DNA from: Candidatus Pacearchaeota archaeon
Lineage (GTDB): Archaea; Nanobdellota; Nanobdellia; Pacearchaeales; GW2011-AR1
Reading direction: 5' to 3'
NCBI GenBank assembly: GCA_018221305.1
Contig: JAAOYK010000051.1
Coordinates: 20,085 to 84,084 of the forward strand
DNA length: 64,000 nucleotides
Shown piece after piece: positions 33,242 to 64,000 of this stretch. Under the pieces are notes generated by a model, which ran no database searches, had not been told where the DNA came from, and worked only from the letters and a program-made list of their open reading frames with translations. Both the position numbers and the translations under genes were made by a program. The first letter of the stretch is position 1, and every line of letters starts with the position of its first letter.

Positions 33242-34360
33242 TTATCTTAACGCATCAAGCCCTGGAAGCCTTTCTCCGGCAATAAATCTAAGAAGCGCTC
33301 CACCAGACAAACTAATATGAGAAAATCCTTGTCGACTAATCTTTGAAGCTTCCATTGCGTCGCTAAGATGCCCGCCCCCGATTAAACTAAAAGCAGAACT
33401 TTTTGCAATCGCCCTCAAAATAGCAAAAGTACCTTTACAAAACTTTTTTTCAGCACAAAATCCAGCAGGCCCTTTCATATAAATAGCCTTAGCCTTTTTT
33501 ATTTCATTTTCAAATAAAGCAATTGTTTTTTCACCAATATCAAAAATTTCATACTTACTTGGAAACTCACTTAGATCAAGTTCATAACGTTTAGCATCTT
33601 TAAGCACTGCAAAATCTTTAGGCAAAGTAACATTTTTCAGTCTTTTTCTTAATTTCTTTGCAAGATATAACTCACTTTTTAAATAATCATTCTGAGCGCC
33701 AAGATTCTTTCCTTTAGAAATCAGACACAACTGCCCAAAAAGCCCACATGCCAATACCTTATTTTTTCCTAACAAAATTATATTTTCTTCAGGCTTAGCA
33801 CCCCCTAAGATGTACAAACAATTTTTGACTTGTATTTTTTTCAATGCATTAACTTCTCTTTCCAAAATCCGGCCCATACAACTAGGGAAATATTTTGGAA
33901 AACTAACAATACTAGTTTGTCTTCGGTGACAAACAGAAAAAGCATCATTTACATAAATATCCACTATCCCCATAAAAAATTTAACTAGATCATTTTTTCC
34001 AGGTTTAAACTCTTCTTCTAAAAATCGGACATTTTCAAGCAGGATAGCTTCCCCATTTTTCATTTTACCAATTTCTTCTCTTGCACGATCTCCAATTATA
34101 TCCTTAACAAACTTAACCTTAGTATACTTACAAAGATATTTCACATGTTGTTCTAAACTAACATAATCATCTTTACCTTTTCGTCCCTGATGAGCTAATA
34201 TTATAACTTTAGCCCCCTTCTTCTTCAACTCTTTAATAGTTTTTACAGACTCTTTAATACGCATACTTAAAAGCACTCTTCCGTTAACAACGTCACTATT
34301 TAAATCACTTCGAAGAAGCACAGTTTTACCCAAAAAATCAAAATCATTTAATGTTTTCAT
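33242..34360 (-). CDS. pgk: Phosphoglycerate kinase (archaeal type)
   Basis: 372 aa. LRSDLNS, ILAHQGRKG, GGGHLSDA motifs. Confidence 0.9.
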   Translation of the reverse strand: MKTLNDFDFLGKTVLLRSDLNSDVVNGRVLLSMRIKESVKTIKELKKKGAKVIILAHQGRKGKDDYVSLEQHVKYLCKYTKVKFVKDIIGDRAREEIGKMKNGEAILLENVRFLEEEFKPGKNDLVKFFMGIVDIYVNDAFSVCHRRQTSIVSFPKYFPSCMGRILEREVNALKKIQVKNCLYILGGAKPEENIILLGKNKVLACGLFGQLCLISKGKNLGAQNDYLKSELYLAKKLRKRLKNVTLPKDFAVLKDAKRYELDLSEFPSKYEIFDIGEKTIALFENEIKKAKAIYMKGPAGFCAEKKFCKGTFAILRAIAKSSAFSLIGGGHLSDAMEASKISRQGFSHISLSGGALLRFIAGERLPGLDALR

Positions 34361-48747: not shown

Positions 48748-51700
48748 TCAAAGTTTCTCAGCAGCAGGAATAATAGATTTTTGATGATACATTGAAGGTT
48801 TTAGACCTAATGGAAGATTTCCGTGTAAACGTTTTTCTTTTCGTCTCTTCAAAACCTTATTAAGATAAAAAATAACAAAAACAATCCCTGCAACCACTAA
48901 AAGCCCCAAAAGTACAAATAAAATTATCTTAAACCAACCAGCAGATAAACTAAAAAATCCACCACCCCCAATCCTAAATTTTGCCTGAGCATTAGCAGGC
49001 TCTTTTTGCCCATTATATTTTAAATCCACAAACAAAGTATATTCACCATTACCTAAAAAGGACAGATCAATCTTTTTTATAAATTCTAATTGTGTTTCAA
49101 CAGGAACTATTTCTTTTTCCTCATACACCATAGATCCAGTAGAATCAAAAGCCCTATAGGTGATGTTACCAAGGACACGACCAGGAATTCCGAAATTAAT
49201 TAAGGAGACCTTTGCCATTAAAGTCTCTTCAATTGATTCATCTAAAATTTCCAAACCAATATCAAACAAAGTATTTCTAGATTTTTTAGAGATCTTTACC
49301 TTAGTAATCTTACACGACCTACTAATATCAGGACGTGATCCAGAACACTCAGGGGTTATTTTTTCACAATCCCTACCTTGTTTTCCATCAACACACCCTC
49401 CCCATGAATCACAATCCCATTTTGCCTTACATGTGGCAGTACCACCACCGCCACCAGAATTTCCCCCACTATCACTAATTGCGTTTAAAAGCATTAACAA
49501 AGATCGACTCTCAGACATATTAAAAGTTCGTGACAAGGCATGATAATTAGCCTTAGTAGTAGTTAGGGTATAATTATAGTAAGTCTTATTAGCAGCTCCA
49601 GAACCATTTTGAGAATAATATGGTAATCGAAGCTTTCTTAAAATCCCAGAAGAGCCAGTAAGCAAAGAAAAGGCCTCAACAGCCCTATGATTTCTAACAT
49701 TAATCGCAGCGTTTAATAAAGGAGAATTTCCAGATTTAACAGTTAAATCAAGATAGTTATAATAATTCAAAAGACCTTCTCCCTGGGTTTGCCAACTAAC
49801 ACCAGTTAAGGTCGTATTTGTAAAGTTCCAAAATCCCCCTGTAAACGGTCCAAAAATCGAATCATCTAAACCATAAATTGAAAATAAATCATTAGACCCA
49901 TTCTTAGAGAGAAAAGAATCTTCAACACTTAGGTTAAAAACTCCAAAATAAATTTCAACAGGATACGATCCAGTCCCAACAGTGCTTGAAGTACATTTTG
50001 AAATATTAATATCATTGCCTCCATATTCAAAGAAAAATGCCGAAGAATAAGGCCCTAAGGATGACACAGTAATATTAAAAAGATCAATAGAATAAACATC
50101 ATGCATCAATAAACCATATCCATAATCCCCAGTAGTTGAAAAAGTACCATCTCGGATATCTAAATCAGAAACATCACTATCAGCAAAAAGTGCATAAGCA
50201 TCTGCCCCATGAGTAATAACATCAAGACGATCTAACAAAGTTCCCACCACATCCTCATTAATAAAAAGCCCATAAGCATAATCCGCGTTTGTAGTTATAT
50301 CATTACTAATTATTTCAGAATCATTACTTAAAATATTAAACCCATAAGCATCCTCACCACTTGTTGTAATAGTATTATTTAAAATTATTACATCCACAGA
50401 ATTCAAATTAATACCATGTGCAAAATCAGCCTCAGTTACAAGATTATTATGAGCAATATTAGAATTAGAGCTAGAAATAATGTTAATACCATAAGCGTCA
50501 CTCGACGAAGTAAACACATCATTAGAACTAACATTACTAAAGGGAGAATCAAAAAGATGCACACCAGATGCATCATTGTTCAAAGTTTCAATATCATTAT
50601 TTATAACATTATTATTCAGACTAGAATTAAGATAAATCCCAGAACTTTGATGTCCTGCAGTATTAATAAAATTATTTGAAAAATTATTATAAGACCCATC
50701 GCTAAGCGAGATCCCAAGACAAGAAATACCATTAGGCATAATTCTGTTCAAAGAAATTAAAGAATTATCAACATTACGCAAAAAAATACCCATCCCATAA
50801 TTCCCAAAAATAGTGATATTATTAGATTGTAAAATAGAATTCTGTGAATCTTTCAAATAAATTGCAGGAGAATAAAGATTACTTGTATTTGTTTTTGAAA
50901 AATTACAATTCAAAATTTTTGTTTCATTATACTCGCTATAAACACCATACGAGCTGCCAGCACTTGCTCCAAAATTAATAGTATTTCCTTGACAATCTAA
51001 AGTAACATTATTAGCACCAAAAATAAAACAAGTATCAGAGGACGAAACACTTGAATTCAAAAGATAGACCCCATCTTCAAAATTTAAACCAGCACACCCA
51101 GAAACTCCCGGATCTATAGCAGCATGAAAATCTTCTTCAATAATCTCTAAATCAAAAGCGTTTTCCTGAGTATTAGGGATTTCAAAGCTAACTTTTATTG
51201 CAAAAGAAAAGCTCGTATCAATATTAACATCATCCAGACTAATTTCAAACTTATCAGGTTTTTTACTTTTCCAGGAAAAAGTTTCAAGTGTTTTGTTTTC
51301 GCTTTCATTAATAACTTCCGGCAAATCATCCAAAGAATCTTCAAGAGTATCATTTACAGTTTCTCCCTGGTCATCCCTAGAACTCTGGTTTACTATTCCT
51401 TGAGAATCATTAATAGTAACATTAATATCAACAAGATCTAAAGAATCATTTATAATCTCACCAGTAAAATCACCTTCGACATCCAAGGTTTCTTCAGCAA
51501 TTATGATTTCAATTTCCTGATTTATTTTTTCATCAAGTTTTTCTTCAATCTTTTTATCTAAAATATCCCCTAACTTTTCATCAATCTTTTCATCAATCTT
51601 TTCTTCAATAATACGATCCAAGGATTCTTCAAAAGTCTTATCAATAGCCTCATCCAAAAGATCCCCCTCAGGATCAGAAGCACCAGAGTCCAAAGCAACA

Positions 51701-52416
51701 GAAAATCCAGTTATAAGATTTGTTTCAGAATCATCCAAATCAAGATATACAAAATTATAATAATCTTTTCGCTTAAACTTAGTTTCATCACTTAGATAAA
51801 TAACTTCATCAGCCCCTGCAGAGTTACTCTGCCTCCCAGAATCACGATTTCTCAGCGACCCGCGGTTGAACTCCTTAACAGAAGCCGCACCAAATTCAGA
51901 CAAACTTTCCTCAGCACTAGGAATCGGCGGTGCAGGAAGAGTCTCAAAATAACCTTGTTCAAAGGTCTCTTCAACAATTTCAAAAGTTTGTGAGTAACTA
52001 ATTTCCAAATTCCTAACAGAACTTCCATCTTCAAAATATAAATTAACTAAAGGATTTTGCAACTCACGCTTCACCTCAGCACTATTACTAACTTCAAAAA
52101 TTGCCTCACAAATCTTATAACCATCATCGATTCTACTAGGTTTCCAGGAGCAATGAATTTCTTCGGGGGAGGAGAGGATAATGTTTCCAATATTTGAAAA
52201 CTTAAAGCCACCGACGTTTACTTCCCCCCCCGTCTTGATCTCAGGATTTAAGAGAGTATCATCATCTAGATCTTTAATAACATTTGATGTCAATCCATTA
52301 TTAACAGTAAAATAAGAAAAAAATACCAAAAGAAGAATCACAACAGCCAAACAAAAGATAAACATCTTTCTTTGATCAATTCTAAAAAAATCAGGCCTCA
52401 TTTCCCTCACCCCCAT
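48748..52416 (-). CDS. 1222-aa surface protein: N-terminal TM, acidic coiled region, parallel beta-helix (PbH1) repeats, Cys-rich module, Ig-like domain, C-terminal TM anchor
   Basis: Beta-helix repeats at aa ~440-860 (NNxIxxxGxxGIxLxxSxNNxIxNN pattern). SGGNSGGGGG linker followed by CKAKWDCDSWGGCVDGKQGRDC. C-terminal WFKIILFVLLGLLVVAGIVFVIFYL followed by KRRKEKR. The true start may be the ATG at 52401 or 52365. Confidence 0.85.
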   Translation of the reverse strand: MGVREMRPDFFRIDQRKMFIFCLAVVILLLVFFSYFTVNNGLTSNVIKDLDDDTLLNPEIKTGGEVNVGGFKFSNIGNIILSSPEEIHCSWKPSRIDDGYKICEAIFEVSNSAEVKRELQNPLVNLYFEDGSSVRNLEISYSQTFEIVEETFEQGYFETLPAPPIPSAEESLSEFGAASVKEFNRGSLRNRDSGRQSNSAGADEVIYLSDETKFKRKDYYNFVYLDLDDSETNLITGFSVALDSGASDPEGDLLDEAIDKTFEESLDRIIEEKIDEKIDEKLGDILDKKIEEKLDEKINQEIEIIIAEETLDVEGDFTGEIINDSLDLVDINVTINDSQGIVNQSSRDDQGETVNDTLEDSLDDLPEVINESENKTLETFSWKSKKPDKFEISLDDVNIDTSFSFAIKVSFEIPNTQENAFDLEIIEEDFHAAIDPGVSGCAGLNFEDGVYLLNSSVSSSDTCFIFGANNVTLDCQGNTINFGASAGSSYGVYSEYNETKILNCNFSKTNTSNLYSPAIYLKDSQNSILQSNNITIFGNYGMGIFLRNVDNSLISLNRIMPNGISCLGISLSDGSYNNFSNNFINTAGHQSSGIYLNSSLNNNVINNDIETLNNDASGVHLFDSPFSNVSSNDVFTSSSDAYGINIISSSNSNIAHNNLVTEADFAHGINLNSVDVIILNNTITTSGEDAYGFNILSNDSEIISNDITTNADYAYGLFINEDVVGTLLDRLDVITHGADAYALFADSDVSDLDIRDGTFSTTGDYGYGLLMHDVYSIDLFNITVSSLGPYSSAFFFEYGGNDINISKCTSSTVGTGSYPVEIYFGVFNLSVEDSFLSKNGSNDLFSIYGLDDSIFGPFTGGFWNFTNTTLTGVSWQTQGEGLLNYYNYLDLTVKSGNSPLLNAAINVRNHRAVEAFSLLTGSSGILRKLRLPYYSQNGSGAANKTYYNYTLTTTKANYHALSRTFNMSESRSLLMLLNAISDSGGNSGGGGGTATCKAKWDCDSWGGCVDGKQGRDCEKITPECSGSRPDISRSCKITKVKISKKSRNTLFDIGLEILDESIEETLMAKVSLINFGIPGRVLGNITYRAFDSTGSMVYEEKEIVPVETQLEFIKKIDLSFLGNGEYTLFVDLKYNGQKEPANAQAKFRIGGGGFFSLSAGWFKIILFVLLGLLVVAGIVFVIFYLNKVLKRRKEKRLHGNLPLGLKPSMYHQKSIIPAAEKL

Positions 52417-52877: not shown

Positions 52878-53444
52878 ATGAAGTTAACTAAAAACGAGAA
52901 GAAAACATTAAAACTATTACTCGAGAACGCAAAAATTTCTGATTCAGCAATAGCAAAAAAGCTAAAAATTTCAAGCCAAGCAGTAGGAAAGATTAGAAAA
53001 AAACTAGAAACAACAGTTATTGAATCATATACAGTTAACCTCAATTATTCAAAACTAGGGATCAATGTTTTTGCAATAGCTCTTGCACGCCTAACCCCAG
53101 ACGGACTTGATAAAGGAGAGCTAGAAGTCGAACAAAAGCTCCTTAATCAAGCAAACATCATCCAAATCCATAGACTTCCAAATCAAAGCACAACTCACAT
53201 TATTCTTTACGGTTTCAAAGATTTAAACGAGCTTGACAACTTTTTTCATTCGACAAAAAAGAAAAATGAGCTCCACAGATTCATTGAAAACAAAGATCTG
53301 TTCACATTTTCTAATCATAGCCTAATAAAAAACAGCCCAATACAACTTTTCAATCAAACAATAGAAGAAATAGGGACTCAGAGCAATAACAACAAGAATG
53401 GTTTTACTGAGATTGAACATTTTAAAAGGCGCTTAAAAAAATAG
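52878..53444 (+). CDS. Lrp/AsnC-family transcription regulator (extended C-terminus)
   Basis: 188 aa. HTH KTLKLLLENAKISDSAIAKKLKISSQAVGKIRKKLE, then a RAM-like domain (SYTVNLNYSKLGINVFAIALARL). Confidence 0.7.
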   Translation: MKLTKNEKKTLKLLLENAKISDSAIAKKLKISSQAVGKIRKKLETTVIESYTVNLNYSKLGINVFAIALARLTPDGLDKGELEVEQKLLNQANIIQIHRLPNQSTTHIILYGFKDLNELDNFFHSTKKKNELHRFIENKDLFTFSNHSLIKNSPIQLFNQTIEEIGTQSNNNKNGFTEIEHFKRRLKK

Positions 53445-53477: not shown

Positions 53478-56400
53478 ATGAAAAAGAGAAGAGTTGGAAC
53501 AAAAAAAAAATCTAAAGGCTTAATCACAGATAATGAATTCTTAGCAGGATTAATTCAATCAAGCAATCAAGCATTTGCAGCAGGATTACCTGACGGAACA
53601 CTATTCACAGTAAACCAATCATTTTGTGAATTAACAGGATATTCTGAAAAAGAATTATTAGAAAAAAAAGATATTTGGAGTAAAAAAATAACTCCAAAAA
53701 AATGGAGAGATTTTGAAAATAAAAAGATTCAACAAGCAATAGAAACAAAAAAACCTACAAGGTATGAAAAAGAATATATAACTAAATCTGGAAAAATAAT
53801 TCCAGTAGAAGTTTTTGTTCAACCCACCTTTGACAAAAATAAGAATTTAAAATACATATACGGATTTATAACAAACATCACAAAAAAACAACAACAACAA
53901 AAAGAACTAGAAAATATATTCAATCTTTCTCCAGACATGTTTTGTATCTGCAGCCCTAAGGGAAAATTTCTCAAGGTCAATCCTGCTTGCTCAAAAACCC
54001 TAGGATACACAACAAACGAAATCCTTAAACTAGGCTGGGCAAAATTAGTTCATCCAGAAGATATAAAGCGCACAGATAAAGAAGTAAAAAAACAATTAAA
54101 AGGCAGCCCTGTAGCAAATTTCACCAATAGGTTTAAATGTAAAAATGGTTCCTACAAAACACTTTCGTGGCAGGCAACCGCTGCAATAAATGGGGTTGTT
54201 TATGCTACTGCCAGAGATATATCTGAAAAAAAACAGATCCAAGAAAAAATACAATTTTTAAGTGAAATTTCCAGGCAAACATCAGATTCAGTCATTACTA
54301 CTGATTTAGATTTTAAAATCAATTGGGTAAATTCAGCCTTTGAAAAATTATTTGGATATTCTAAAAAAGAAGTCCTAGGCAAAACTCCCGACATTCTAAA
54401 TGCAGAACCACTTTCAAAAGAAATTCAAAGCAATATTTACAAAACAATATCTTCTAAAAAAATTTGGACTGGAGAAATTTTAAACAAAAAAAAGAATGGA
54501 GATAAGTTCATATGTTCTATAAAAATATTTCCAATACTGGGAGGGGATGGAAAAATAATTGCATATGCCTCACATCAGGAAGACACAACAGAAAAAAAGA
54601 AAATAAAAGAAAATATTCAAAACACAAATGAAAAACTAGAATGGCATTTACAAAATACACCTATTGGCTATATTGAATGGGACTTAGATTTCAAAGTAAA
54701 AGAATGGAACAATGCAGCAAAAGAAATATTTGGCTACACTAAAAAAGAAGCCTTAGGAAGGCATGCCGCAGGATTATTAATTCCAGAATCTGCAAGAAAA
54801 ATAGTAGATAAAATTTGGTCAGACCTTTTAAAAAATAAAGGTGGGGCTCGAAGCACAAATAAAAATTTTACAAAAAATAAAAAATCAATCGTATGTGATT
54901 GGTTTAACACCCCATTAATTAATAAAAAAGGCCAGGTCTTTGGAGTAGCTTCACTTATCCAAGATATAACCGAAGAAAAAAATAAAGAAAAAAAAATAAA
55001 AGAAAACGAGGAGAAATTCAAAAACCTATTAGAAAGCACTTCAGATTTCATATGGGAAGTAGATAAAAATGGAAAATATGTTTTTGCATCAGACAGTGTT
55101 GAGAAGATTTTAGGTTACAGACCAGAAGAAATTATGGGAAAAACTCCATTTGATTTCATGGAAAAACAAGAAGCAGAAAAAATATCCAAAAAATTTATAG
55201 AAATTGTATCAAAAAAACAGCCAATAAAAGATCTTGAAAACCTGAACATAACTAAAGATAATAAAAAAGTTTACTTATTAACAAACGGGGTACCTTTATT
55301 AGATAAAAACAAAAACATAATTGGATACCGGGGGGTTGATAAAGATATAACAGAGAAAAAACAAATTGAACAAAAACTATCCACTCAAGCATCACTCCTT
55401 CAACAAGTTCACAACGCAATCATAACAATAAATTTTGATAATGAAATACTCTCCTGGAACAACTATGCAGAAAAGCTTTACCAATGGAAAAGTGAAGAGG
55501 CAATAGGAAAAAACATTATTGAATTATTATCCCCCGAAGAAATGAAAAATAAAGTTAAAGAGAATTTTAAAGACCTCAATAGAGAGGGGTATTGGGAAGG
55601 AGATTTCAATGTAAAAAGAAAAGATGGTTCAACAGTCCTTGCCCACATAATTAATACTTATTTAAAAGATAATCAAGGGGAAAATATCGGATTTATTGGA
55701 ATAAGCACAGATATCACTGAGAAAAGAAAGCGGGAAGAGGCCCTAAAAGAAAGTGAAGAAAGATTAAAAAAATATATTGAAGAAATGCCTGAATCAATTT
55801 TAATTTCAGATCTAAAGGGTAAGACAAAATTTGCAAATAAAAAATTCTATGACACATTCAAATTTTCAGAAAAAGAAATAATCGGAAAGCTTCCTACCTG
55901 CATGATTCCAAAACAAGACATTCCAAAGATAATGGCTAATTTGAAACAAATAAGTCAGAGGGGTAGCAGTCCAGAATTCGAGCTTCAAGCAATAACAAAA
56001 AACAAACAAGATCGAGTGATTAAATGCCGCGGAACATTAATAAAAAACAACAAAAATCAACCAAAAGAAATTATAGTGATAATCAGAGACGTTACAGAAA
56101 AAATAAAACAAAACAAACAAATAAAAGATTCAGAACAAAAACTTAAAACAATTATTGAACATAGTAATGAAGTTTTTTATATTCATGATACAAACCATAA
56201 AATAATATATATAAGTCCTCAATGCAAACAAATTTTTGGATTCACGCCTCAAGAAATGAAAGTTAAGTGGACCACCCTTACCACGAATAATCCGATAAAT
56301 GATCAAGGTTTTAAATTAACAACAACAGCCATTAAAACGGGTCAAAAACAACCAAATTACGTACTAGAAATATTGCGAAAAGATAAATCAAAAAGAATGA

Positions 56401-57764
56401 TTCAAATCGACGAATCTCCAATTATAAATTCTAAAGGAAAAGTTATTGGAATGAGCGGGGCTATTAGTGACGTAACTAAAAAAAGATTACAAGACCAGAT
56501 AGTTAAAGAATCAGAATTAAAATACCATTCATTGTTTGATAATATGATAAATGCATTTGCATTACACGAAATTGTTTTAGACAAAAATAAAAATCCAATT
56601 GATTATATTTTCTTAGAAACAAATAATGCATTTACAAATCTCACAGGATTAAAAAAAGATATAATTGGAAAAAAAGTAACTCAGATCATTCCAGACATAA
56701 GAAAGCAAAAACCAGATTTAGTAAAAATTTACGGAGAAGTAGCTATTACAGGAAAACAAAAGAAATTTGAAATCTATTTCCCCCCATTAAAAAAATGGTT
56801 TGCAATCACAGCATTTAGTCCAAAAAAGAATCAATTTGCAGTAATCTTCGATGATATAACAGAAAAAAAGAAACAACAAGAAAAATTAAACCAGCAAAAT
56901 AAATTTCTCCAAAATATCTTAGATTCCTTAGATCATCCATTTTATGTAGTCGATGTAAAAACCCACAAAATAGAAATTGCAAATAAAAAAATGGGAAAAC
57001 TCCCAAAAAACGTTACCTGTCACAGATTAACCCACCATAATGATCTACCTTGCAAACCTCCAAAAGCTCCCTGCCCACTAGAAGTTATGAAAAAAACAAA
57101 AAGACCAGTTACTGTAAATCATATTCACTATGATAACAACAATAAACAAAAACATGTGGAAGTGCATGCATATCCGATTTTAGATGAAAAAGGCAATTTA
57201 ATCAAGATGATAGAGTATTCTCTTGATGTAACTGAAAAACAAAAAGTAGAACAAAAAATAAAACAAACAGCAGAAGAGTGGGAATCAACTTTCAATTCAA
57301 TACCAGATCTAATTTCAATTCATGATGAAAATTCTACAATAACCAGAGTAAACAAAGCATTCCTAAAAAAATTTAATTTACCTGAAGAAAAAATAATAGG
57401 GCAAAAATGTTACAGATTAATTCACAATAAAAATTCTCCAATAGATAAGTGTCCTGCAAAAGAAGCAATGCAAACTAAAAAACCTGTAACAGTAGAGTAT
57501 TTTGAACCCAAACTTAATGCACACCTTGAAGTAACTGCAAATCCAATTATTGATTCAAATAGAAAAATCAAAGGAATTGTCCATATTGTAAGAGACATAT
57601 CTGAAAAAAAGAAAGCAGAAAAAGAATTTTTACAAACAACAGAGAACCTAAACAAATTTAATAAGTTTGCAGTAGGCAGAGAACTTCAAATGGTTAATTT
57701 AAAAAAAGAAATAAATAACCTACTAAAAATGCAAGGAAGACCAACCAAGTATAATGCTGAATGA
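53478..57764 (+). CDS. Multi-PAS (about 11 PAS/PAC modules) cytoplasmic sensor protein lacking any canonical output domain
   Basis: 1428 aa. Recurrent PAS S-box patterns (e.g. WNNAAKEIFGYTKKEALG, ASDSVEKILGYRPEEIMGK). Ends in the coiled-coil peptide NKFAVGRELQMVNLKKEINNLL. No H-box or ATPase motifs. Confidence 0.85.
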   Translation: MKKRRVGTKKKSKGLITDNEFLAGLIQSSNQAFAAGLPDGTLFTVNQSFCELTGYSEKELLEKKDIWSKKITPKKWRDFENKKIQQAIETKKPTRYEKEYITKSGKIIPVEVFVQPTFDKNKNLKYIYGFITNITKKQQQQKELENIFNLSPDMFCICSPKGKFLKVNPACSKTLGYTTNEILKLGWAKLVHPEDIKRTDKEVKKQLKGSPVANFTNRFKCKNGSYKTLSWQATAAINGVVYATARDISEKKQIQEKIQFLSEISRQTSDSVITTDLDFKINWVNSAFEKLFGYSKKEVLGKTPDILNAEPLSKEIQSNIYKTISSKKIWTGEILNKKKNGDKFICSIKIFPILGGDGKIIAYASHQEDTTEKKKIKENIQNTNEKLEWHLQNTPIGYIEWDLDFKVKEWNNAAKEIFGYTKKEALGRHAAGLLIPESARKIVDKIWSDLLKNKGGARSTNKNFTKNKKSIVCDWFNTPLINKKGQVFGVASLIQDITEEKNKEKKIKENEEKFKNLLESTSDFIWEVDKNGKYVFASDSVEKILGYRPEEIMGKTPFDFMEKQEAEKISKKFIEIVSKKQPIKDLENLNITKDNKKVYLLTNGVPLLDKNKNIIGYRGVDKDITEKKQIEQKLSTQASLLQQVHNAIITINFDNEILSWNNYAEKLYQWKSEEAIGKNIIELLSPEEMKNKVKENFKDLNREGYWEGDFNVKRKDGSTVLAHIINTYLKDNQGENIGFIGISTDITEKRKREEALKESEERLKKYIEEMPESILISDLKGKTKFANKKFYDTFKFSEKEIIGKLPTCMIPKQDIPKIMANLKQISQRGSSPEFELQAITKNKQDRVIKCRGTLIKNNKNQPKEIIVIIRDVTEKIKQNKQIKDSEQKLKTIIEHSNEVFYIHDTNHKIIYISPQCKQIFGFTPQEMKVKWTTLTTNNPINDQGFKLTTTAIKTGQKQPNYVLEILRKDKSKRMIQIDESPIINSKGKVIGMSGAISDVTKKRLQDQIVKESELKYHSLFDNMINAFALHEIVLDKNKNPIDYIFLETNNAFTNLTGLKKDIIGKKVTQIIPDIRKQKPDLVKIYGEVAITGKQKKFEIYFPPLKKWFAITAFSPKKNQFAVIFDDITEKKKQQEKLNQQNKFLQNILDSLDHPFYVVDVKTHKIEIANKKMGKLPKNVTCHRLTHHNDLPCKPPKAPCPLEVMKKTKRPVTVNHIHYDNNNKQKHVEVHAYPILDEKGNLIKMIEYSLDVTEKQKVEQKIKQTAEEWESTFNSIPDLISIHDENSTITRVNKAFLKKFNLPEEKIIGQKCYRLIHNKNSPIDKCPAKEAMQTKKPVTVEYFEPKLNAHLEVTANPIIDSNRKIKGIVHIVRDISEKKKAEKEFLQTTENLNKFNKFAVGRELQMVNLKKEINNLLKMQGRPTKYNAE

Positions 57765-57789
57765 AAGGAGGTAAATAAAATAAATAATG
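57761..57789 (+). promoter_or_regulatory. Conserved translation-initiation leader with AGGAGGT Shine-Dalgarno (copy 1)
   Basis: ATGAAAGGAGGTAAATAAAATAAATAATG. 28 of 29 nt identical to 59807-59835. Confidence 0.6.
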
Positions 57790-58854
57790 GAAGAAAATAT
57801 ACAGACAAAAAAGAAAGTCAAGCTAATAGTAATTATCCCAATTGCCGTAGTTTTAATTATAATAATTATAGCAATGGTTTATTTGTTAATACCAAAAGAA
57901 ACTCAAATAGATACTGCAACAGAAACACCAGCAGCCACAGAAACAAATGCAAATTATGCAGGCAAAAAAATCCTTCATGTAGATTCGTATCATTCTGGAT
58001 ATGAATGGAGTGACGGAATAGCAAAAGGTATAGAAGATATTTTAAAAGATACTGGAATAACTTTAGAAAGAATAGAAATGGATACAAAGAGAAACAGCAA
58101 AGAAGAGTTCAAAAAAAATGCAGCAATAATTGTAAAACAAAAAATTGAATCAATGAGCCCTAATGTTGTAATTGTTAGTGATGATAATGCATTTAAATAT
58201 GTTGTTCAGGAGTATTACAAAGATGCAGACTTGCCAGTCGTATTCTGCGGATTAAACTGGGATGCAAATGTATATGGTGCACCCTACACCAATACTGCAG
58301 GCATGGTTGAAGTTGCTCTAACAAATCAGATAATTGAATATTTAAAACAATATTCAAATGAAGAAAAAATAGGATATTTATCAGCAAATACAACCACAGA
58401 AAAAAAGAATTTAGAAAACTATGAAAATTTATTAGATCTATCTTTTGAGAAGACCTACTTTGTAAATACAATGCAAGAATGGAAAAATGCATTTACTGCA
58501 CTTCAAACAGAAGTAGATTTAGTTATTTTTGAAAATAGTGCAGGGATTTCTGATTGGGATGAAACCGAGGCAGAATCATTTGCAGTAAAAAATACAAAAA
58601 TACCAATTGGAACAACCAATACATGGACAATGCAATCTTCCTTACTAGGATTAACAAAAGTTCCAGAAGAGCAAGGAGTTTGGTCAGCTAATGCAGCCCT
58701 TGAAATTTTAAATGGAAAAACACCTTTAGAAATAGGAACAACAAAAAACAAGCAAGGAAAACTAATCTTAAATTTAGAAATTGCAGAAAAACTAGAAGTG
58801 GTCTTTACGCCTTCAATGCTAAAAAATGCAGAAATAATTGGGGTTGAAAATTAA
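57787..58854 (+). CDS. Periplasmic binding protein, ABC_sub_bind (COG2984)-like, N-terminally anchored
   Basis: 355 aa with an N-terminal TM. KKILHVDSYHSGYEWSDGIAKG pattern. No ABC permease or ATPase nearby. Confidence 0.65.
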   Translation: MEENIQTKKKVKLIVIIPIAVVLIIIIIAMVYLLIPKETQIDTATETPAATETNANYAGKKILHVDSYHSGYEWSDGIAKGIEDILKDTGITLERIEMDTKRNSKEEFKKNAAIIVKQKIESMSPNVVIVSDDNAFKYVVQEYYKDADLPVVFCGLNWDANVYGAPYTNTAGMVEVALTNQIIEYLKQYSNEEKIGYLSANTTTEKKNLENYENLLDLSFEKTYFVNTMQEWKNAFTALQTEVDLVIFENSAGISDWDETEAESFAVKNTKIPIGTTNTWTMQSSLLGLTKVPEEQGVWSANAALEILNGKTPLEIGTTKNKQGKLILNLEIAEKLEVVFTPSMLKNAEIIGVEN

Positions 58855-58860
58855 GTAAAA

Positions 58861-59796
58861 ATGGTAAAACTAAACATTAGAAATAAAATCCTAATTGGAT
58901 TTGGAATTATACTAGGAATAGCTTTAATCTCGATGATTACAGTTTACACTGCAACTACAAACCTAAACAAACTATCCCAAGAATTGGCCCCCCTATCAAA
59001 GGATATAGGAATTTTAGAAAAACAAATAAAAACAAATCAACAAATAGAAAAACAACTAGAATTATTTATTCTTGTAAAAAGTCCTGAAAATAAAGAATTA
59101 TTACTTCAAAAAGTAGAAGAATCTCAAGACTACCTCGAGGAATCAGTTAATAGAAACCAAAAAAACAAAAATATCCTAGAATTTAAAGATTTACATGAAA
59201 AAGGGCATGAACAAATTTTACATTTAATTGAAGAAATAGAATCAAAAGTCTCAACAGCCCACATAAATCTCAAAGTAATTGAATCCTATAATTTAATAGA
59301 ACAGATAACAAATCTCGGTGAACAAATATCTCAAGAAAAAAGTAATCAATATGAGGCAATAATAATAAAACAAAAAAAAATCATTAAAAATTTACAAACT
59401 AATCTCTTAATCTCGGCCCTAATATTAATAATTTCAGGATCATTTTTATCAATTAAAATTTCGAAAACATTAACAAATCCAATAATCAAATTAAAAGATA
59501 CTGCAGAAAAGATAGGAAGGGGAAATCTAAATATTTTAGCAGAAATAAAAACCAATGATGAAATAGGTGAATTAGCAAACACTATTAATTTAATGACTAA
59601 TAAATTAAAGGCCTCAAGGAAACAACTACAAGATGCAAACAAAAACCTAGAGAAAAAGATAAAAAAAAGGATTCAAGATTCTGAATTAAAATCAAAAGAA
59701 TACGAGAGAATGAACAAATTCATGCTTGGAAGAGAAAATGTGATGGTTAAATTAAAAAGTGAGATAAAGGAATTAAAAGAACAATTGAAAAAATAA
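58861..59796 (+). CDS. TM sensor - HAMP - coiled-coil protein without output domain (HAMP-only, copy 1)
   Basis: 311 aa. TM1, ~160-aa helical extracytoplasmic region, TM2, HAMP (NDEIGELANTINLMTNKL). Ends EYERMNKFMLGRENVMVKLKSEIKELKEQLKK. Confidence 0.75.
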   Translation: MVKLNIRNKILIGFGIILGIALISMITVYTATTNLNKLSQELAPLSKDIGILEKQIKTNQQIEKQLELFILVKSPENKELLLQKVEESQDYLEESVNRNQKNKNILEFKDLHEKGHEQILHLIEEIESKVSTAHINLKVIESYNLIEQITNLGEQISQEKSNQYEAIIIKQKKIIKNLQTNLLISALILIISGSFLSIKISKTLTNPIIKLKDTAEKIGRGNLNILAEIKTNDEIGELANTINLMTNKLKASRKQLQDANKNLEKKIKKRIQDSELKSKEYERMNKFMLGRENVMVKLKSEIKELKEQLKK

Positions 59797-59806
59797 TAAA
59801 ATTTAA

Positions 59807-59835
59807 ATGAAAGGAGGTAAATAAAACAAATAATG
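59807..59835 (+). promoter_or_regulatory. Conserved translation-initiation leader with AGGAGGT Shine-Dalgarno (copy 2)
   Basis: ATGAAAGGAGGTAAATAAAACAAATAATG. Confidence 0.6.
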
Positions 59836-60717
59836 GAAATAAAAACATCAGATAACCAAAAAAATTTAAAAAAAGGACTTTTAATTATAGCCATAGTGAT
59901 TTTTATAGTTATAAGTTTGGTCCTCATTAGTTATAATCTATTTTCAAATAAAGAAGCAAAATTAGATCAAAATCAAGAAACAGAGTCTCAAGAAATTAAG
60001 GACATAAAATTAGAAACCAATAAAATAATTATTGCAAGTGGTGAATGGTCTCCATATGTCTCGGAAAATTTGCTTCAGGAGGGGGTAGTTTCTCGTATTG
60101 TAAGAGAATCATTTGAATTAAAAGGATTTGAAGTAGAATATGTATATCTTCCATGGGCAAGAAGCATGGAAGAAGCAAAAATTGGAAAATATCATGGGAC
60201 CTTTCCATGGATTAAAACTACTGAAAGAGAAGAATCCTTTTACTATTCAGTTCCAATTGCATATCAAAAAAATGTTTTTTTCCATAGAAAAGACACTGAT
60301 TTTAATTGGGCCACCTTGCAAGACTTAAAAAATTTAACAATTGGTGCAAATTCAGATTATTCCTATGGAGAAGAGGTCACTCAAGAAATTAACAATGGGA
60401 CTCTTACTGTGGAATACATAGTTGACGACAAGGCAAATATAAAAAAGTTACTTGCAAAAAGGGTCGATATCGTAATAGCAGATTTAGATGCAACTTCTGC
60501 TATTATTAAAAAATTAACCGAACAGGAACAAGAACAAATAACTTACCATCCAAGAGACATAACTCAGGACCCGCTATATCTCTTGTTAACCAAATCAATT
60601 ACTGAAAATAAAGAAACTATGGAAATTTTTAATTCTGGATTTAAACGTTTGCAAGAAAGCGGAAAAATAGAGCAATACTGGAACGAATCTAGAAACGGAG
60701 AATACACTCAAAAATAA
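59833..60717 (+). CDS. Periplasmic binding protein, family 3 (polar amino-acid type), N-terminally anchored
   Basis: 294 aa with an N-terminal TM. IIIASGEWSPYVSE...YLPWARSMEE pattern typical of SBP_bac_3. Confidence 0.65.
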   Translation: MEIKTSDNQKNLKKGLLIIAIVIFIVISLVLISYNLFSNKEAKLDQNQETESQEIKDIKLETNKIIIASGEWSPYVSENLLQEGVVSRIVRESFELKGFEVEYVYLPWARSMEEAKIGKYHGTFPWIKTTEREESFYYSVPIAYQKNVFFHRKDTDFNWATLQDLKNLTIGANSDYSYGEEVTQEINNGTLTVEYIVDDKANIKKLLAKRVDIVIADLDATSAIIKKLTEQEQEQITYHPRDITQDPLYLLLTKSITENKETMEIFNSGFKRLQESGKIEQYWNESRNGEYTQK

Positions 60718-60718
60718 C

Positions 60719-61573
60719 ATGATAAGAAAAAGTTTAATGGTTAAATTAAGTATAATTATCCTAATTATATCAACACTAGCATTTGCCTTACTTGGTTCTT
60801 TTGAATATAAATATGATTCAAAAGAGCTAAAAAAAGATTTAATAAATAGACTAGAATCAACATCAAAAAGACTATCAATAAGCTTAGATACGCCCTTGTA
60901 CACCTTTCAAGACCAAGGAATAAGAGACATCATACTCTCTGAAATAAGTGATCCTGAAATAATCGGGATATTTGTAATAGAAAATTCAAAAATTAATTCA
61001 AGTTATGGATATGCAAAATTAGAAGATAAAATAATAGAATCAAAAACATTTCCTGAGAAATCTAATAATATCTTGCAAATCAAGAACACAATTTCACATA
61101 AAGAAGAAAGTTTGGGAGAGGTTTATGTTTTTATTACAACAAATGTCTTAAAACAAAAATTAAAATCAGAATTAATAACTCATGCCATCCAAATAATTAT
61201 TATTAACATATCAATAACAATCCTATTAATCGCGCTACTTAAAATAATGATTATAAGCCCCCTAAATACTTTGCAAAAAGCAACATCTCAAATATCAAAA
61301 GGAAACTTAAATCAAAACATACAAATAAAATCAAAGGATGAAATAGGTGATCTTGCAAATACATTTCAAGAAATGACTAATAAATTAAAGATCTCAAGAA
61401 AGCAACTCCAAGATGCAAATAAAAATCTTGAATTAAAAATAAAACAAAGAACCTCAGAATTACAAAACAAAAATAAAGAATACGAACGGATGAACAAGTT
61501 CATGCTTGGAAGAGAAAATGAAATGGTTAAATTAAAAGAACAAATAAAAAAACTAAAAGAAAATAAAAAATGA
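60719..61573 (+). CDS. TM sensor - HAMP - coiled-coil protein without output domain (HAMP-only, copy 2)
   Basis: 284 aa. HAMP KDEIGDLANTFQEMTNKL. Ends EYERMNKFMLGRENEMVKLKEQIKKLKENKK. ATGA overlap with the kinase gene. Confidence 0.75.
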   Translation: MIRKSLMVKLSIIILIISTLAFALLGSFEYKYDSKELKKDLINRLESTSKRLSISLDTPLYTFQDQGIRDIILSEISDPEIIGIFVIENSKINSSYGYAKLEDKIIESKTFPEKSNNILQIKNTISHKEESLGEVYVFITTNVLKQKLKSELITHAIQIIIINISITILLIALLKIMIISPLNTLQKATSQISKGNLNQNIQIKSKDEIGDLANTFQEMTNKLKISRKQLQDANKNLELKIKQRTSELQNKNKEYERMNKFMLGRENEMVKLKEQIKKLKENKK

Positions 61574-63624
61574 AAATAAAAATTCAAACAAAAATTATTT
61601 CGGGATTCATTATAATAATCCTAATTGCAACTATTTTCTTTTACATATCAATCAATTCAAACAAAAAAAGTTTAGAAGAATCAATAGGACTACAGTCCTT
61701 GTTTCTAGCTCAAGAATCCCTCCAAAAAGCTGAAAGAGAAATTTATAGTAAAATCGAAATTTTTCAAGAGTATTCCCATGATACGGCCCTCCAAGAAGCA
61801 GTTTTGGCATCAAACAAAGAATTCAAAAATTTAACAAATATCTCTGAATATATCAATCAAAAAGACTCTGAATGGATTTCAGCACAAGAATCAAGAATAA
61901 CAGAATTTATGCAAAAGATATTAGAAAATGAACTATCCCTAGAATTAAAAGAAAAAACAAATTTCTGGGAAGAAGAATACAAGTATCCCATTTATGCAGA
62001 AGTATTTGTAACAAATAAATATGGAGCAAATATAGCTCAAACCGGAAAGACCTCTGATTATTATCAGGCAGACGAAATATGGTGGCAAAAAGCAAAAGAA
62101 CAAGAGTTATACATTGGAGAGCTTGAATATGATACGAGCGCAAAAGCTTTCTCTCTCCCAATTGCAATAAAAATTCATGATGAAAATAATAATTTCATAG
62201 GAACCATAAAAGTTGTTTTAGATATTAGAAATACAATAAATCTTTTAAAAGAGATAGAAATTACCCGGAAAATAGATTATCCTCTGCATCTTAAACTGTT
62301 AACTAACGATAAAAAATTAATCTATGCTACTGGAAAATACACAATCTTAAAAAATATGTCCAAAAGTGAGCTCTACGACAGAGTTAAAGGAAATCAAGGC
62401 TCTTTCATCATAATTGAAAAATATGAATCTGAAACAAAAAAAGAATTAATCGCATATGTTATTTCCAAAAAATCTCCAGATTTAAAATCCCTTGGATGGA
62501 CCCTATTTTTAGAACACGAATTAATCCAAATATTTGAACCCATAAACATTATGAAAAGAAATCTAATAATACTCGTAATAATTTTATCACTCACCGGCGC
62601 CATAATAACAATACTTATTTCATATTCTATTTCAAAGCCAGTATCCAAATTAAAAAAAGCCAGCTTTGAAATTGCTAAAGGAAACTTAAATCATGAAATA
62701 AATATTAAAAGTAGTGATGAAATTGGAGATTTAGCAAAATCCTTTACTGAAATGACTAAAAATTTAAAATTATATCAACAAAAACTAATTCAATCAGAAA
62801 AACAAAAAGGCAAGGGCCTTGAAATAGAAGTTGTAAAAAAAACTAAACAATTAAATGAACAACTTCAGGACTTAAACAATACAAAAACAGCAATATTAAA
62901 TATCATGGAAGATATGTCTCATGCAAATGAGGATTTAAAGGCATTAGACAAAGCAAAATCAAATTTCTTAAACATGATATCTCACGAACTAAAAACCCCA
63001 TTAACAGCATTAATTGCACACTTAGAAGTAATTGATGATATGAAAAGCGAGCTTCCAAAAGCAGAATTAAAAAGCCTTGAAGCAATAAGACGTAATGCAA
63101 ATAACCTACAAATGCTAATTGTTAACATATTAGAAATTGCAAGAATGGAATCAGGCAAATTTGAACTAACAAAAGGTGAAGTAAATATTCAAAATTCAAT
63201 TAACAATTTAATTAGTAGGCTAGAAATTTTAGCAAAACAAAAAAATCTACCAATAATCCCAAAAGTAGGAAAACTACCATTAATAAATGCAGACGAAAAC
63301 AGAATAAATGAGATACTTAACAATCTTACGACCAATGCAATTAAATTTACTGAAAAAGGCACCATCACAATTTCAGCAATAAAAAAAGGTAATTTTATTG
63401 AAATCTCTGTTAAAGACACAGGTGTTGGAATCCCAAAAGATAAAATTAAAAATTTATTTCGTAAATTTTATCAGGTTGATGCATCATTATCAAGAAGATA
63501 CGGAGGAACAGGATTAGGGTTATCAATTACACGCCAACTAATAGAATCACACGGGGGAAAGATCTGGGTAAAAAGTGATAAAGGCAAAGGTGCAACTTTC
63601 ACATTCACCTTACCAATTAAATAA
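61570..63624 (+). CDS. Sensor histidine kinase (TM - Cache-like periplasmic domain - TM - HAMP - HisKA - HATPase_c)
   Basis: 684 aa. H-box FLNMISHELKTPL, N-box NNLTTNAIKFT, G1 DTGVGIP, G2 GGTGLGLSI. Confidence 0.9.
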   Translation: MKIKIQTKIISGFIIIILIATIFFYISINSNKKSLEESIGLQSLFLAQESLQKAEREIYSKIEIFQEYSHDTALQEAVLASNKEFKNLTNISEYINQKDSEWISAQESRITEFMQKILENELSLELKEKTNFWEEEYKYPIYAEVFVTNKYGANIAQTGKTSDYYQADEIWWQKAKEQELYIGELEYDTSAKAFSLPIAIKIHDENNNFIGTIKVVLDIRNTINLLKEIEITRKIDYPLHLKLLTNDKKLIYATGKYTILKNMSKSELYDRVKGNQGSFIIIEKYESETKKELIAYVISKKSPDLKSLGWTLFLEHELIQIFEPINIMKRNLIILVIILSLTGAIITILISYSISKPVSKLKKASFEIAKGNLNHEINIKSSDEIGDLAKSFTEMTKNLKLYQQKLIQSEKQKGKGLEIEVVKKTKQLNEQLQDLNNTKTAILNIMEDMSHANEDLKALDKAKSNFLNMISHELKTPLTALIAHLEVIDDMKSELPKAELKSLEAIRRNANNLQMLIVNILEIARMESGKFELTKGEVNIQNSINNLISRLEILAKQKNLPIIPKVGKLPLINADENRINEILNNLTTNAIKFTEKGTITISAIKKGNFIEISVKDTGVGIPKDKIKNLFRKFYQVDASLSRRYGGTGLGLSITRQLIESHGGKIWVKSDKGKGATFTFTLPIK

Positions 63625-63670
63625 ACAATAAAAATATAAACATATGACACTTTGAAAGGGGGTTAAAAAA

Positions 63671-64000
63671 ATGACAAAAATACTTTACATTGAAGACAAT
63701 CAAGATACTGCTGAGGCAGTGAAAATAATCTTAACTAATGCAGGTTTCATCATAGAAACTGCAAACTCTGGGAAAAAAGGAACAGCACTAGCAAAAAAAG
63801 GGTTTGACATTTTCTTGCTTGATATAATGTTGCCTGACATGTCTGGATGGGACATTTTCGCAACACTTAAAAAAGAAGGCACAAAAGCAAAATTTGCGTT
63901 TTTATCTGCAATCCCAGTTTCTGGTGAACGAATGAATGAGCTAAAAAAAGCAGGAGTTTCAGATTACATCACAAAACCGTTTACAAAAGAGGACCTAGTA
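63671..64000 (+). CDS. Response regulator receiver domain (partial, runs off window)
   Basis: Hand translation: MTKILYIEDNQDTAEAVKIILTNAGFIIETANSGKKG...FDIFLLDIMLPDMSGWDIF...DYITKPFTKEDLV. AGGGGG SD upstream. Confidence 0.85.
   Translation, partial: MTKILYIEDNQDTAEAVKIILTNAGFIIETANSGKKGTALAKKGFDIFLLDIMLPDMSGWDIFATLKKEGTKAKFAFLSAIPVSGERMNELKKAGVSDYITKPFTKEDLV

Follow-up and report, generated by a model that had tools for sequence, protein, structure and literature searches.

Three sensor proteins encoded in a single signalling operon of a DPANN archaeon (Candidatus Pacearchaeota), all of which lack a recognisable output domain, were found to end in the same conserved segment of ~30 residues, here called the tail. 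The operon lies at the 3' end of a 64,000-nucleotide (nt) stretch of contig JAAOYK010000051.1 (assembly GCA_018221305.1, positions 20,085 to 84,084 of the forward strand), which was analysed at its full length and is referred to below as the window. Tails of this kind are present in many bacteria and archaea, and their genes are commonly followed by the gene of a histidine kinase (HK) with a motif of its own, A-L-x-N-I-V-E-D-L-N, in the helix leading straight into the phospho-histidine helix. Judging by its motif, its position, gene linkage, spacing and a module swap, the tail appears to be the output of sensor-only proteins. Tail sensors probably dock on the kinase helix that precedes the DHp domain, bringing several inputs into one kinase; both the contact and its effect on the kinase are predicted from sequence. 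Systems of tail sensors and motif-bearing kinases apparently form a widespread, unannotated class of multi-sensor two-component systems.

The seven genes of the operon lie on the same strand and are tightly spaced in the map of open reading frames (ORFs), in the order PAS, 22 nt, SBP1, 6 nt, HAMP1, 36 nt, SBP2, 1 nt, HAMP2, an ATGA overlap, HK, 46 nt, and the receiver gene RR. The features of the operon, with a gene just 5' of it, are as follows.

52878..53444, + strand: winged helix-turn-helix (wHTH) protein, Lrp/AsnC/TrmB-like, 188 amino acids (aa); Pfam HTH_24 and HTH_AsnC; 33 nt 5' of the PAS gene
53478..57764, + strand: PAS, an 11-PAS cytoplasmic sensor of 1428 aa, tail-terminated; 11 PAS stretches in Pfam
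57660..57722, + strand: tail motif of the PAS protein (pattern match), NKFAVGRELQMVNLKKEINNL, then the LxxxG.P..Y variant ending
57787..58854, + strand: SBP1, membrane-anchored binding protein; Pfam PF04392 ABC_sub_bind, E 8e-13
58861..59796, + strand: HAMP1, transmembrane segment (TM), extracytoplasmic domain, TM, HAMP, S-helix and tail; HAMP the only Pfam match
59713..59775, + strand: tail motif of HAMP1 (pattern match), NKFMLGRENVMVKLKSEIKEL
59833..60717, + strand: SBP2, membrane-anchored family-3 binding protein; Pfam PF00497 SBP_bac_3
60719..61573, + strand: HAMP2, TM, small extracytoplasmic domain, TM, HAMP, S-helix (QRT) and tail; HAMP the only Pfam match
61493..61555, + strand: tail motif of HAMP2 (pattern match), NKFMLGRENEMVKLKEQIKKL; the G of GRE is 19 residues after the T of QRT
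61570..63624, + strand: HK, TM, dCache-like sensor, TM, HAMP, S-helix, AILNIMEDM, HisKA and HATPase_c (Pfam; the dCache match is weak)
62890..62916, + strand: HK motif AILNIMEDM, aa 441-449; T of KKT to N444, 19 residues; N444 to His472, 28 residues (4 heptads)
63671..64000, + strand: RR, single-domain receiver (REC); Pfam Response_reg; runs past the window end

Pfam gave no domain besides the 11 PAS stretches in the PAS protein, which contains no enzyme domain, and neither Pfam nor NCBIfam gave a HisKA/DHp or HATPase_c match in the PAS, HAMP1 or HAMP2 proteins. The NCBIfam scan added no output domain; its matches were partial and confined to the TM-HAMP regions of kinases, methyl-accepting chemotaxis proteins (MCPs) and YfiN; the sensor of HAMP2 is weakly similar to YfiN and to the 'HK near YfiR' type (NCBIfam HK_near_YfiR_like, E 4e-12, under the model cut-off). 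In AlphaFold2 monomer models, residues 205-283 of HAMP2 formed a single unbroken helix to the C-terminus, with a predicted local distance difference test score (pLDDT) of about 90, and residues 231-310 of HAMP1 did the same at lower confidence (pLDDT about 60-85). No globular domain was present in the C-terminal ~80 residues of either model. The HAMP1 model was all-helical, its extracytoplasmic domain included, and the extracytoplasmic domains of both models are of low confidence. HK is a HisKA-type kinase by its HisKA (E 1e-13) and HATPase_c (E 5e-33) matches in Pfam and its SHELKTP sequence at aa 471-477, and the full-length receiver protein (P0186) is 119 aa long and consists of REC only. 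By Pfam, the gene neighbours of SBP1 and SBP2 are signalling genes, with no permease and ATPase co-encoded in the window.

The PAS, HAMP1 and HAMP2 proteins end alike, in ~30 residues of the form NKF(M/A)(L/V)GRE..MV.LK.EI..L that follow an S-helix segment. When all six reading frames of the window were searched with a loose tail pattern, exactly three occurrences were obtained, one in each of these proteins. The centre of the S-helix is QRT in HAMP2 and KRI in HAMP1, and the PAS protein has no ERT. HAMP1 and HAMP2 were 63% identical over 37% of the query, which comprised the HAMP-to-tail part only (59% there in alignment A7), and their HAMP domains resemble the HAMP of the window kinase. Their sensor domains are mutually unrelated, and so are SBP1 and SBP2. 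Full-length HAMP2 gave only 7 homologue matches, whose common part was again HAMP-to-tail; they included the dCache-HAMP-tail protein P0003 and deltaproteobacterial TM-HAMP-PAS-tail proteins.

A tail sub-variant, ..EIN.LL...G.P.Y, was seen in the window (57723-57761), in two related metagenomic and Pacearchaeota loci (L001 2-430 and L159 5142-6425), in L059 and in protein P0043. It sits on soluble multi-PAS proteins; the HAMP proteins carry the plain ending. In the 1428-aa protein the last two PAS domains also contain Cys/His-rich motifs, CHRLTHHNDLPCKPPKAPCP and CYRLIHNKNSPIDKCP (window 57018-57077 and 57408-57455), which may be a site for a metal, Fe-S or redox cofactor.

A preliminary description of this locus, made from the sequence alone, had given the seven-gene same-strand arrangement with its spacers, and the ORF map reproduced these coordinates exactly. 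It had also stated that the PAS, HAMP1 and HAMP2 proteins have no known output domain, that a kinase core occurs only in the last membrane protein, and that the binding proteins have no ABC partner. The lack of an output domain in the Pfam and NCBIfam scans and the single helices of the models agree with the first statement, and the domain assignments of HK, HAMP1 and HAMP2 with the second; the third is in keeping with the absence of the LSGGQ ABC-ATPase signature across the whole 64 kb window, the DNA past the receiver gene lying outside it. Two other points had to be revised. The HAMP proteins were said to stop after a generic coiled coil, and instead carry a sharply conserved terminal motif with invariant R, E and K. 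The binding-protein and HAMP genes were described as duplicated modules, and only the HAMP-to-tail parts proved to be related.

The extent of the tail family was determined with a tail profile (A2) built from 18 tails, which was used in an exhaustive search of 1.84 billion representative proteins. The profile matched 18,302 protein clusters at E<=1e-3 and 3,603 at E<=1e-10, from bacteria and archaea, and in nearly all of the best 150 matches the tail lay at the extreme C-terminus. A word-indexed protein search with the tail returned mainly short fragments. At least 209 tail sites were confirmed when one genome per GTDB species was scanned. The set of tail loci used below comprised 78 loci, of which 76 were fetched genome loci and two were L001 and L002. 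Bacterial hosts of the 76 loci were Geobacter and other Desulfobacterota, Nitrospirota, Bacteroidota, Verrucomicrobiota, Planctomycetes, Treponema, Chloroflexi, Gammaproteobacteria and many Patescibacteria, and the archaeal hosts were Methanosarcinales, Methanobacteriota and Woesearchaeota.

After the S-helix, the tail consensus reads N.ELERMNKLFVGRELRMVELKE.I.ELE. Column conservation in the core was 97% for G, 100% for R, 100% for E, 91% for L, 96% for R/K and 98% for M, continuing with E 92%, L 99% and K 100% and then I 84% and L 90%; upstream of the core it was 89% for N, 76% for F and 88% for V. The S-helix signature was represented by R (88%) and T (90%), which precede the G of GRE by exactly 20 and 19 residues, respectively. 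The 133 ORFs from the 78 loci were 36-1643 aa long, and nearly all had the stop codon 8-35 residues past the end of the motif. Among 86 full-length tail proteins, the Pfam domains were PAS (75), GAF (12), HAMP (11), PocR (8), REC (6) and dCache (6), with MASE3, CHASE, MEDS, Phosphonate-bd and SBP_bac_3 as rarer input domains. The 25 commonest Pfam families of these proteins included no output domain (MCPsignal included), and none of 126 tail ORFs had a HisKA or HATPase match.

No Pfam family covers the tail in the 86 full-length members, and there is no NCBIfam model for it. A PDB search with the tail profile gave no relative, only weak matches to coiled coils (the coronavirus HR2 peptide EK1, the spike S2 HR2 and MITF), and the EK1 and spike S2 HR2 matches almost certainly reflect generic coiled-coil similarity. 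The tail motif and its architecture were searched for in the open-access literature both by sequence string and by concept, and no description was found.

Some tail proteins have unusual arrangements. Four (P0037, P0040, P0039 and P0043) carry two tails, either in tandem after a membrane domain or in sensor-tail-linker-sensor-tail chains; the latter resemble fusions of neighbouring tail genes, an observation that bears on tail-tail pairing. Others are small REC-tail or REC-PAS-tail proteins (L036 7485-8165, L060 560-1150, L004 10351-11400) in which the tail is the sole 'output', which suggests phosphorylation-controlled feedback onto the kinase.

The gene order that recurred in the 78 loci was optional binding-protein genes, 1-5 tandem tail genes, a histidine kinase gene and the gene of a receiver of 120-140 aa; a hybrid kinase gene often came next. 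A kinase gene lay 3' on the same strand with at most three intervening non-tail genes for 74 of the 126 tail ORFs, and with none intervening for 42; 49 of the 78 loci had such a downstream kinase. An independently found deltaproteobacterial locus had the order HAMP-PAS-tail, HK, REC and hybrid HK. The core of tail sensor, kinase and receiver was found from DPANN archaea to Desulfobacterota and Patescibacteria.

Binding proteins were frequent in this context. Sampled neighbours of tail genes were binding proteins in 10 out of 10 cases, and 79 non-redundant neighbours gave Pfam matches to Phosphonate-bd (20), NMT1 (12), Peripla_BP_4 (7), ABC_sub_bind (7) and Peripla_BP_6 (3). Together these five families gave 49 Pfam matches in this set, in which some proteins were matched by two of them. 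Binding domains also occur fused, both in binding-domain-TM-PAS-tail proteins (e.g. L012:5086-7056) and in kinases. FIST-domain proteins (4) and YfiR/HmsC-like periplasmic proteins (2) were further recurring neighbours in the sample of 79.

The first kinase 3' of the tail genes usually reads ...ERT.EL..K..EL..SQ.ALMNIVEDLN.KT.ELE.AN..., running on into LDRLKSMFIASMSHELRTPL; the corresponding region of the window kinase is TKTAILNIMEDMSHANEDL, and patescibacterial kinases have a relaxed motif, A..NVLEDL. The motif was present in 32 of 51 first-downstream kinases versus 7 of 31 other kinases of the same loci (odds ratio 5.8, p 6e-4), and an N-I-V-E-D-L-type motif was present in 4 of 821 non-kinase proteins. 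A minority kinase type that follows tail arrays in L003, L026 and L053 has the H-box LLQQDKMASIGQLAAGVAHEINNP and no N-I-V-E-D-L motif, and may be a second class of partner.

The spacing of the two motifs was compared by counting from the T of ERT in the S-helix. Of 138 tails, 119 had the G of GRE at a distance of 19 residues, and the N of NIVEDL in kinases stood at 19 residues (48 cases) or 12 (19 cases). Where an H-box could be recognised (72 kinases), this N preceded the phospho-histidine by 35 residues in 71; the kinases of the window and of L159 had 28. Both kinase spacings, T to N and N to phospho-histidine, differ by or equal whole heptads. Because their spacing from the S-helix matches, the tail core and the kinase motif occupy the same place on a common scaffold. 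When tails and kinases were compared by hhalign, they aligned through the PAS end and the S-helix (E 9e-10), and the alignment ended where the two motifs start. The dCache-HAMP-tail protein P0003 and the window kinase share 38% identity between residue 3 and the S-helix, after which P0003 has the tail in place of DHp-CA; judged by this alignment, the pair is a natural module swap at the S-helix. As defined here, an operon of this class encodes a protein with no enzymatic output domain that carries [N]..[FM][VIL]G-R-E-x-[RK]-M-x-E-L-K..I..L at most about 35 residues from its stop codon, and, downstream on the same strand, a kinase with A-[LI]-x-N-[ILV]-[VLM]-[ED]-D-[LM] at a distance of whole heptads from the phospho-histidine; the three window sensors and the window kinase have these features.

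The association was also examined in reverse, with 80 metagenome loci picked by the kinase motif alone, 58 of which had at least one upstream gene on the contig. A narrower motif alignment (A5) was used, A4 being too diverse for DNA patterns, and the set is thereby biased to Desulfobacterota-type kinases. Among the 58 loci, a tail gene was immediately upstream of the kinase in 20, within three genes in 17 more and elsewhere in the locus in 5. In the 17, the order was often tail gene, gene of a ~300-aa binding protein, kinase gene. Since the forward and reverse searches both show linkage, the association of tail and kinase holds in both directions.

The closest relatives of the window locus were compared with it gene by gene. 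A locus from a JGI metagenome (L001) contains a PAS-tail gene with the ...LGRPEKY ending of the window PAS protein, a small PAS gene, the gene of P0003 and an orthologue of SBP1, which adjoins the tail sensor. Two syntenic Pacearchaeota loci (L159 and L160) have genes of giant Ig-like and beta-helix surface proteins upstream, as in the window, and consist of genes for an HTH protein, a 427-aa PAS-tail protein, a 1190-aa kinase, a 118-aa REC and a DUF835-like protein. Their kinase motif, TKTAVLNMMEDM, is 28 residues before the His. The conserved core is therefore HTH, PAS-tail, motif-kinase and REC, and the window operon has acquired its two modules of binding protein and HAMP-tail protein between the PAS-tail gene and the kinase gene. 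In a Desulfonema locus (L058), a dCache-HAMP-PAS-GAF-tail gene, an SBP_bac_3 gene and the gene of a motif-bearing kinase follow one another; the SBP_bac_3 protein is 26% identical to SBP2 (E 1e-16), and the extracytoplasmic part of the adjacent kinase resembles that of HAMP2.

The multi-input scheme of the preliminary description, in which binding proteins signal through HAMP-only co-sensors to one kinase, was thus sustained in part. Its general idea, that kinase-less sensors feed one co-encoded kinase, has strong comparative support, as genes of tail sensors stand directly upstream of a kinase and a receiver gene in many phyla. The conserved unit is the tail sensor plus kinase, and not the binding protein plus HAMP protein; the syntenic relative has only PAS-tail, HK and REC. 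In the loci analysed here, about half of the other tail-adjacent genes encode periplasmic binding proteins. The suggestion that the scheme had not been described before is consistent with our searches, in which no account of it was found in the open-access literature, Pfam, NCBIfam or the PDB.

Under the proposed mechanism, each tail protein would presumably be a dimer, and its basic amphipathic terminal helix would be offered to the pre-DHp helix of the kinase. The helices could pack laterally in a four-helix arrangement or heterodimerise in register; the latter geometry would use the common HAMP and S-helix. The conformational state of the sensor would then shift the kinase/phosphatase balance of the single kinase, which would act on the single-domain receiver. 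Inputs in the window would be the two orphan binding proteins, each through its own membrane HAMP-tail transducer, together with the 11-PAS cytoplasmic sensor and the Cache-like domain of the kinase itself. When heptads were assigned manually, the kinase stretch appeared as a leucine zipper with Leu at d and the conserved N, E, D and N pointing outward, and the tail appeared to combine a broad hydrophobic face with the invariant R, R/K and K. This assignment would fit a basic tail packed laterally on an acidic patch of the kinase, four or five heptads above the phospho-histidine. A further-reaching proposal, which we advance tentatively, is that the GRELRM..LK tail and the ALxNIVEDLN helix could be a dedicated heteromeric docking code of 'split sensor kinases', in which any sensor (PAS, GAF, HAMP with a binding protein, or REC) might be plugged in non-covalently through a ~30-residue helix five or four heptads above the phospho-histidine.

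Several observations weigh against docking on the neighbouring kinase. About one third of the first-downstream kinases have no motif, no kinase is encoded in the fetched flank of about one third of the tail genes, and 16 of the 58 loci picked by the kinase motif have no tail gene. Geobacter-like genomes are rich in tail genes, and some adjacency is therefore possible by chance. Covariation between tail and kinase was not detected: the maximum mutual information (with average product correction, 66 adjacent pairs) was 0.33 versus 0.32 at the 95th percentile of permutations, in a comparison of little power with near-invariant motif columns. The lateral fit of the kinase E and D, at b and c positions, depends on a heptad register that was set manually and not computed. 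Some of these points would be expected if tail sensors acted independently of the neighbouring kinase, with the tail as a homo-oligomerisation or stability element or as the ligand of an unlinked partner, and adjacency reflecting co-regulation or a build-up of sensor genes around two-component loci. Also in favour of such independence, 31 of the 126 tail ORFs have several downstream genes yet no kinase in the same-strand run, and the proteins with two tandem tails could mean tail-tail pairing. We nevertheless consider it unlikely. Linkage is strong whichever way it is searched and specific to motif-bearing kinases within the same loci, the spacing is equivalent in tails and kinases, modules are swapped exactly at the S-helix, and the three-gene core is kept from DPANN archaea to Desulfobacterota and Patescibacteria. 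An alternative that keeps the kinase as partner is that the tail is a pseudo-H-box (G-R-E-L-R for S-H-E/D-L-R, with Arg for His) serving as a pseudosubstrate or decoy for the ATP-binding domain of the kinase or for the receiver. By eye, ELERMNKLFV-GRELRM resembles ELDRLKSMFIASMSHELRT and ELEAFSYSVSHDLRA from kinases that share loci with tail genes, the R-E-L-[RK] that is invariant in tails parallels the invariant H-E-L-R of the H-box, and every such operon codes for a single-domain receiver, which requires something to dock with. Against this, hhalign gave no significant similarity between the tail core and the DHp alignment (E 0.14, 10 columns), and the match by eye requires an indel of 1 or 3 residues. 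A pseudo-H-box would also leave the N-I-V-E-D-L motif at the tail-equivalent position of the kinase unexplained, and we regard this alternative as distinctly improbable.

Two further explanations concern the window genes themselves. SBP1 and SBP2 could be ordinary uptake proteins with their permease and ATPase encoded elsewhere, placed only incidentally beside the HAMP-tail genes; PF04392 and SBP_bac_3 are transporter-type folds, and the DNA beyond the receiver gene was outside the range in which the ABC signature was sought. This is very improbable given that the 64 kb hold no such signature, that orphan binding-protein genes of five families recur beside tail sensors and motif-kinases in many phyla, that the same binding domains are fused to tail proteins and to kinases, and that an SBP2/HAMP2-like pair recurs in L058. 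Neighbouring binding proteins are, moreover, established activators of sensor kinases (PMC11113362). The remaining possibility, which the preliminary description had itself raised, is that the HAMP-only and PAS-only genes are fragments of a disrupted kinase, produced as pseudogenes or by assembly artefacts. These proteins are indeed collinear with kinases up to the S-helix. What follows the S-helix, however, is a distinct motif with invariant residues that ends near the stop codon and is conserved in the 18,302 clusters; the reading frames are intact and tightly spaced, and the syntenic relative has the same PAS-tail gene. The fragment explanation was rejected because a conserved tail motif stands in place of kinase sequence, and the chance that it is correct is negligible. 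Docking of the tail on the pre-DHp helix is the reading that we retain as probable.

The genes around the operon were also annotated. The wHTH gene at 52878-53444 is probably the first gene of the operon, as indicated by its 33 nt spacing and by synteny in L159, where an orthologue (4585-5142) has the same place before the PAS-tail gene. Since the receiver has no DNA-binding domain, the wHTH protein is a candidate for its target, and may serve the system as transcriptional output or as regulator. In L159 a gene at 10416-10943 encodes a 175-aa DUF835/DUF7090-like (inactive KaiC-like) protein directly after the stand-alone REC. Fusions of REC with DUF835 are listed among archaeal response regulators (PMC5847659), and the DUF835-like protein of L159 may be the target of the receiver. 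The matching stretch of the Pacearchaeota contig is past the 3' end of the window, and exact-sequence look-ups of HK and of proteins P0001 and P0187 gave no record; L159 was used in its place. Divergent from the operon and upstream of it are genes of a 2348-aa Ig-like (Big_13) protein (41337-48383, - strand) and a 1222-aa right-handed beta-helix protein (48748-52416, - strand). Elsewhere in the window there are genes of a NiFe-hydrogenase large-subunit-like protein (25478-26767), a phosphoglycerate kinase (33242-34360) and a PEP-utilising enzyme (7038-9407); no tRNA genes were found in the 64 kb.

Many prokaryotic proteins consist of sensor domains only (PAS, GAF, HAMP or REC-PAS), and the tail offers a concrete candidate for their output. 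If the proposal is true, it would provide an output mechanism for tens of thousands of sensor-only proteins in bacteria, candidate phyla radiation bacteria and archaea, and would bring a chemoreceptor-like many-to-one logic into ordinary two-component systems. A real contact would account for the integration of several inputs by one kinase without gene fusion and for the tandem sensor-gene arrays of Geobacter-like genomes, and would give orphan binding proteins a role. It would also supply a short, portable docking peptide for engineered multi-input two-component sensors. The annotation 'PAS domain S-box protein' masks a definable family that deserves a model of its own.

Among known systems, the arrangement can be compared with MCP-CheW-CheA, in which kinase-less receptors of TM-sensor-TM-HAMP-coiled-coil build also share a separately encoded kinase, many receptors to one kinase, and in which binding proteins can present ligand as input. 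Unlike in that system, HAMP1 and HAMP2 have no MCPsignal domain (PF00015), neither CheW nor CheA is present, and the kinase is a classical membrane HisKA/HATPase_c protein. The predicted contact would be made by a ~30-residue terminal helix, straight in the AlphaFold2 models, rather than by the hairpin tip of an MCP, and many tail proteins are soluble PAS, GAF or REC proteins.

Binding-protein-dependent sensor kinases are known from LuxP/LuxQ and TorT/TorS. Kinases of the AgtS/AruS type also depend on a binding protein (PMC11113362). In these systems, as here, an orphan binding-protein gene adjoins a membrane sensor gene, a pairing that recurs across genomes in our loci, and the loaded binding protein is the signal. 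Their membrane partner is itself the kinase, whereas the partners of SBP1 and SBP2 end in a tail and have no DHp/CA, and a further relay step to a separate kinase would therefore be needed.

In the RetS-GacS multikinase network, RetS is a full hybrid kinase that binds GacS through its own DHp (PMC8498467). The likeness lies in the modulation of a kinase by direct helix-helix contact at its dimerisation region without phosphotransfer, here predicted, and in the convergence of several sensors on one kinase. The tail proteins differ in having no DHp/CA, and would be expected to contact the helix on the N-terminal side of the DHp. Small anti-kinases such as Sda, KipI and FixT bind a histidine kinase and alter its autophosphorylation. 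Tail proteins would likewise be separate polypeptides that bind a kinase and alter its activity, but Pfam and NCBIfam gave no sequence relationship between these inhibitors and tails, and the inhibitors are not fusions with sensor domains and have no common terminal motif.

The S-helix was described as a ~40-residue helix with a central E-R-T that in nearly every case lies between two signalling domains (Anantharaman, Balaji and Aravind 2006, PMC1592074). Its signature, LE..V.ERT.EL, is present ahead of the tail core, in a segment that aligns to the kinase S-helix. In tail proteins, unlike in that description, only the terminal GRELRM..LK helix (~30 residues) follows, which is absent from PMC1592074. 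Archaeal REC-only and REC-PAS/GAF regulators are presumed to work by contacts with other proteins (Galperin et al. 2018, PMC5847659), and the tail motif is not described in that census. Proteins of the REC-PAS type that lack a recognised output are common. The output of the present operon is likewise a stand-alone REC and some tail proteins are themselves of the form REC-(PAS)-tail, and the tail may be the missing output for part of the REC-PAS class.

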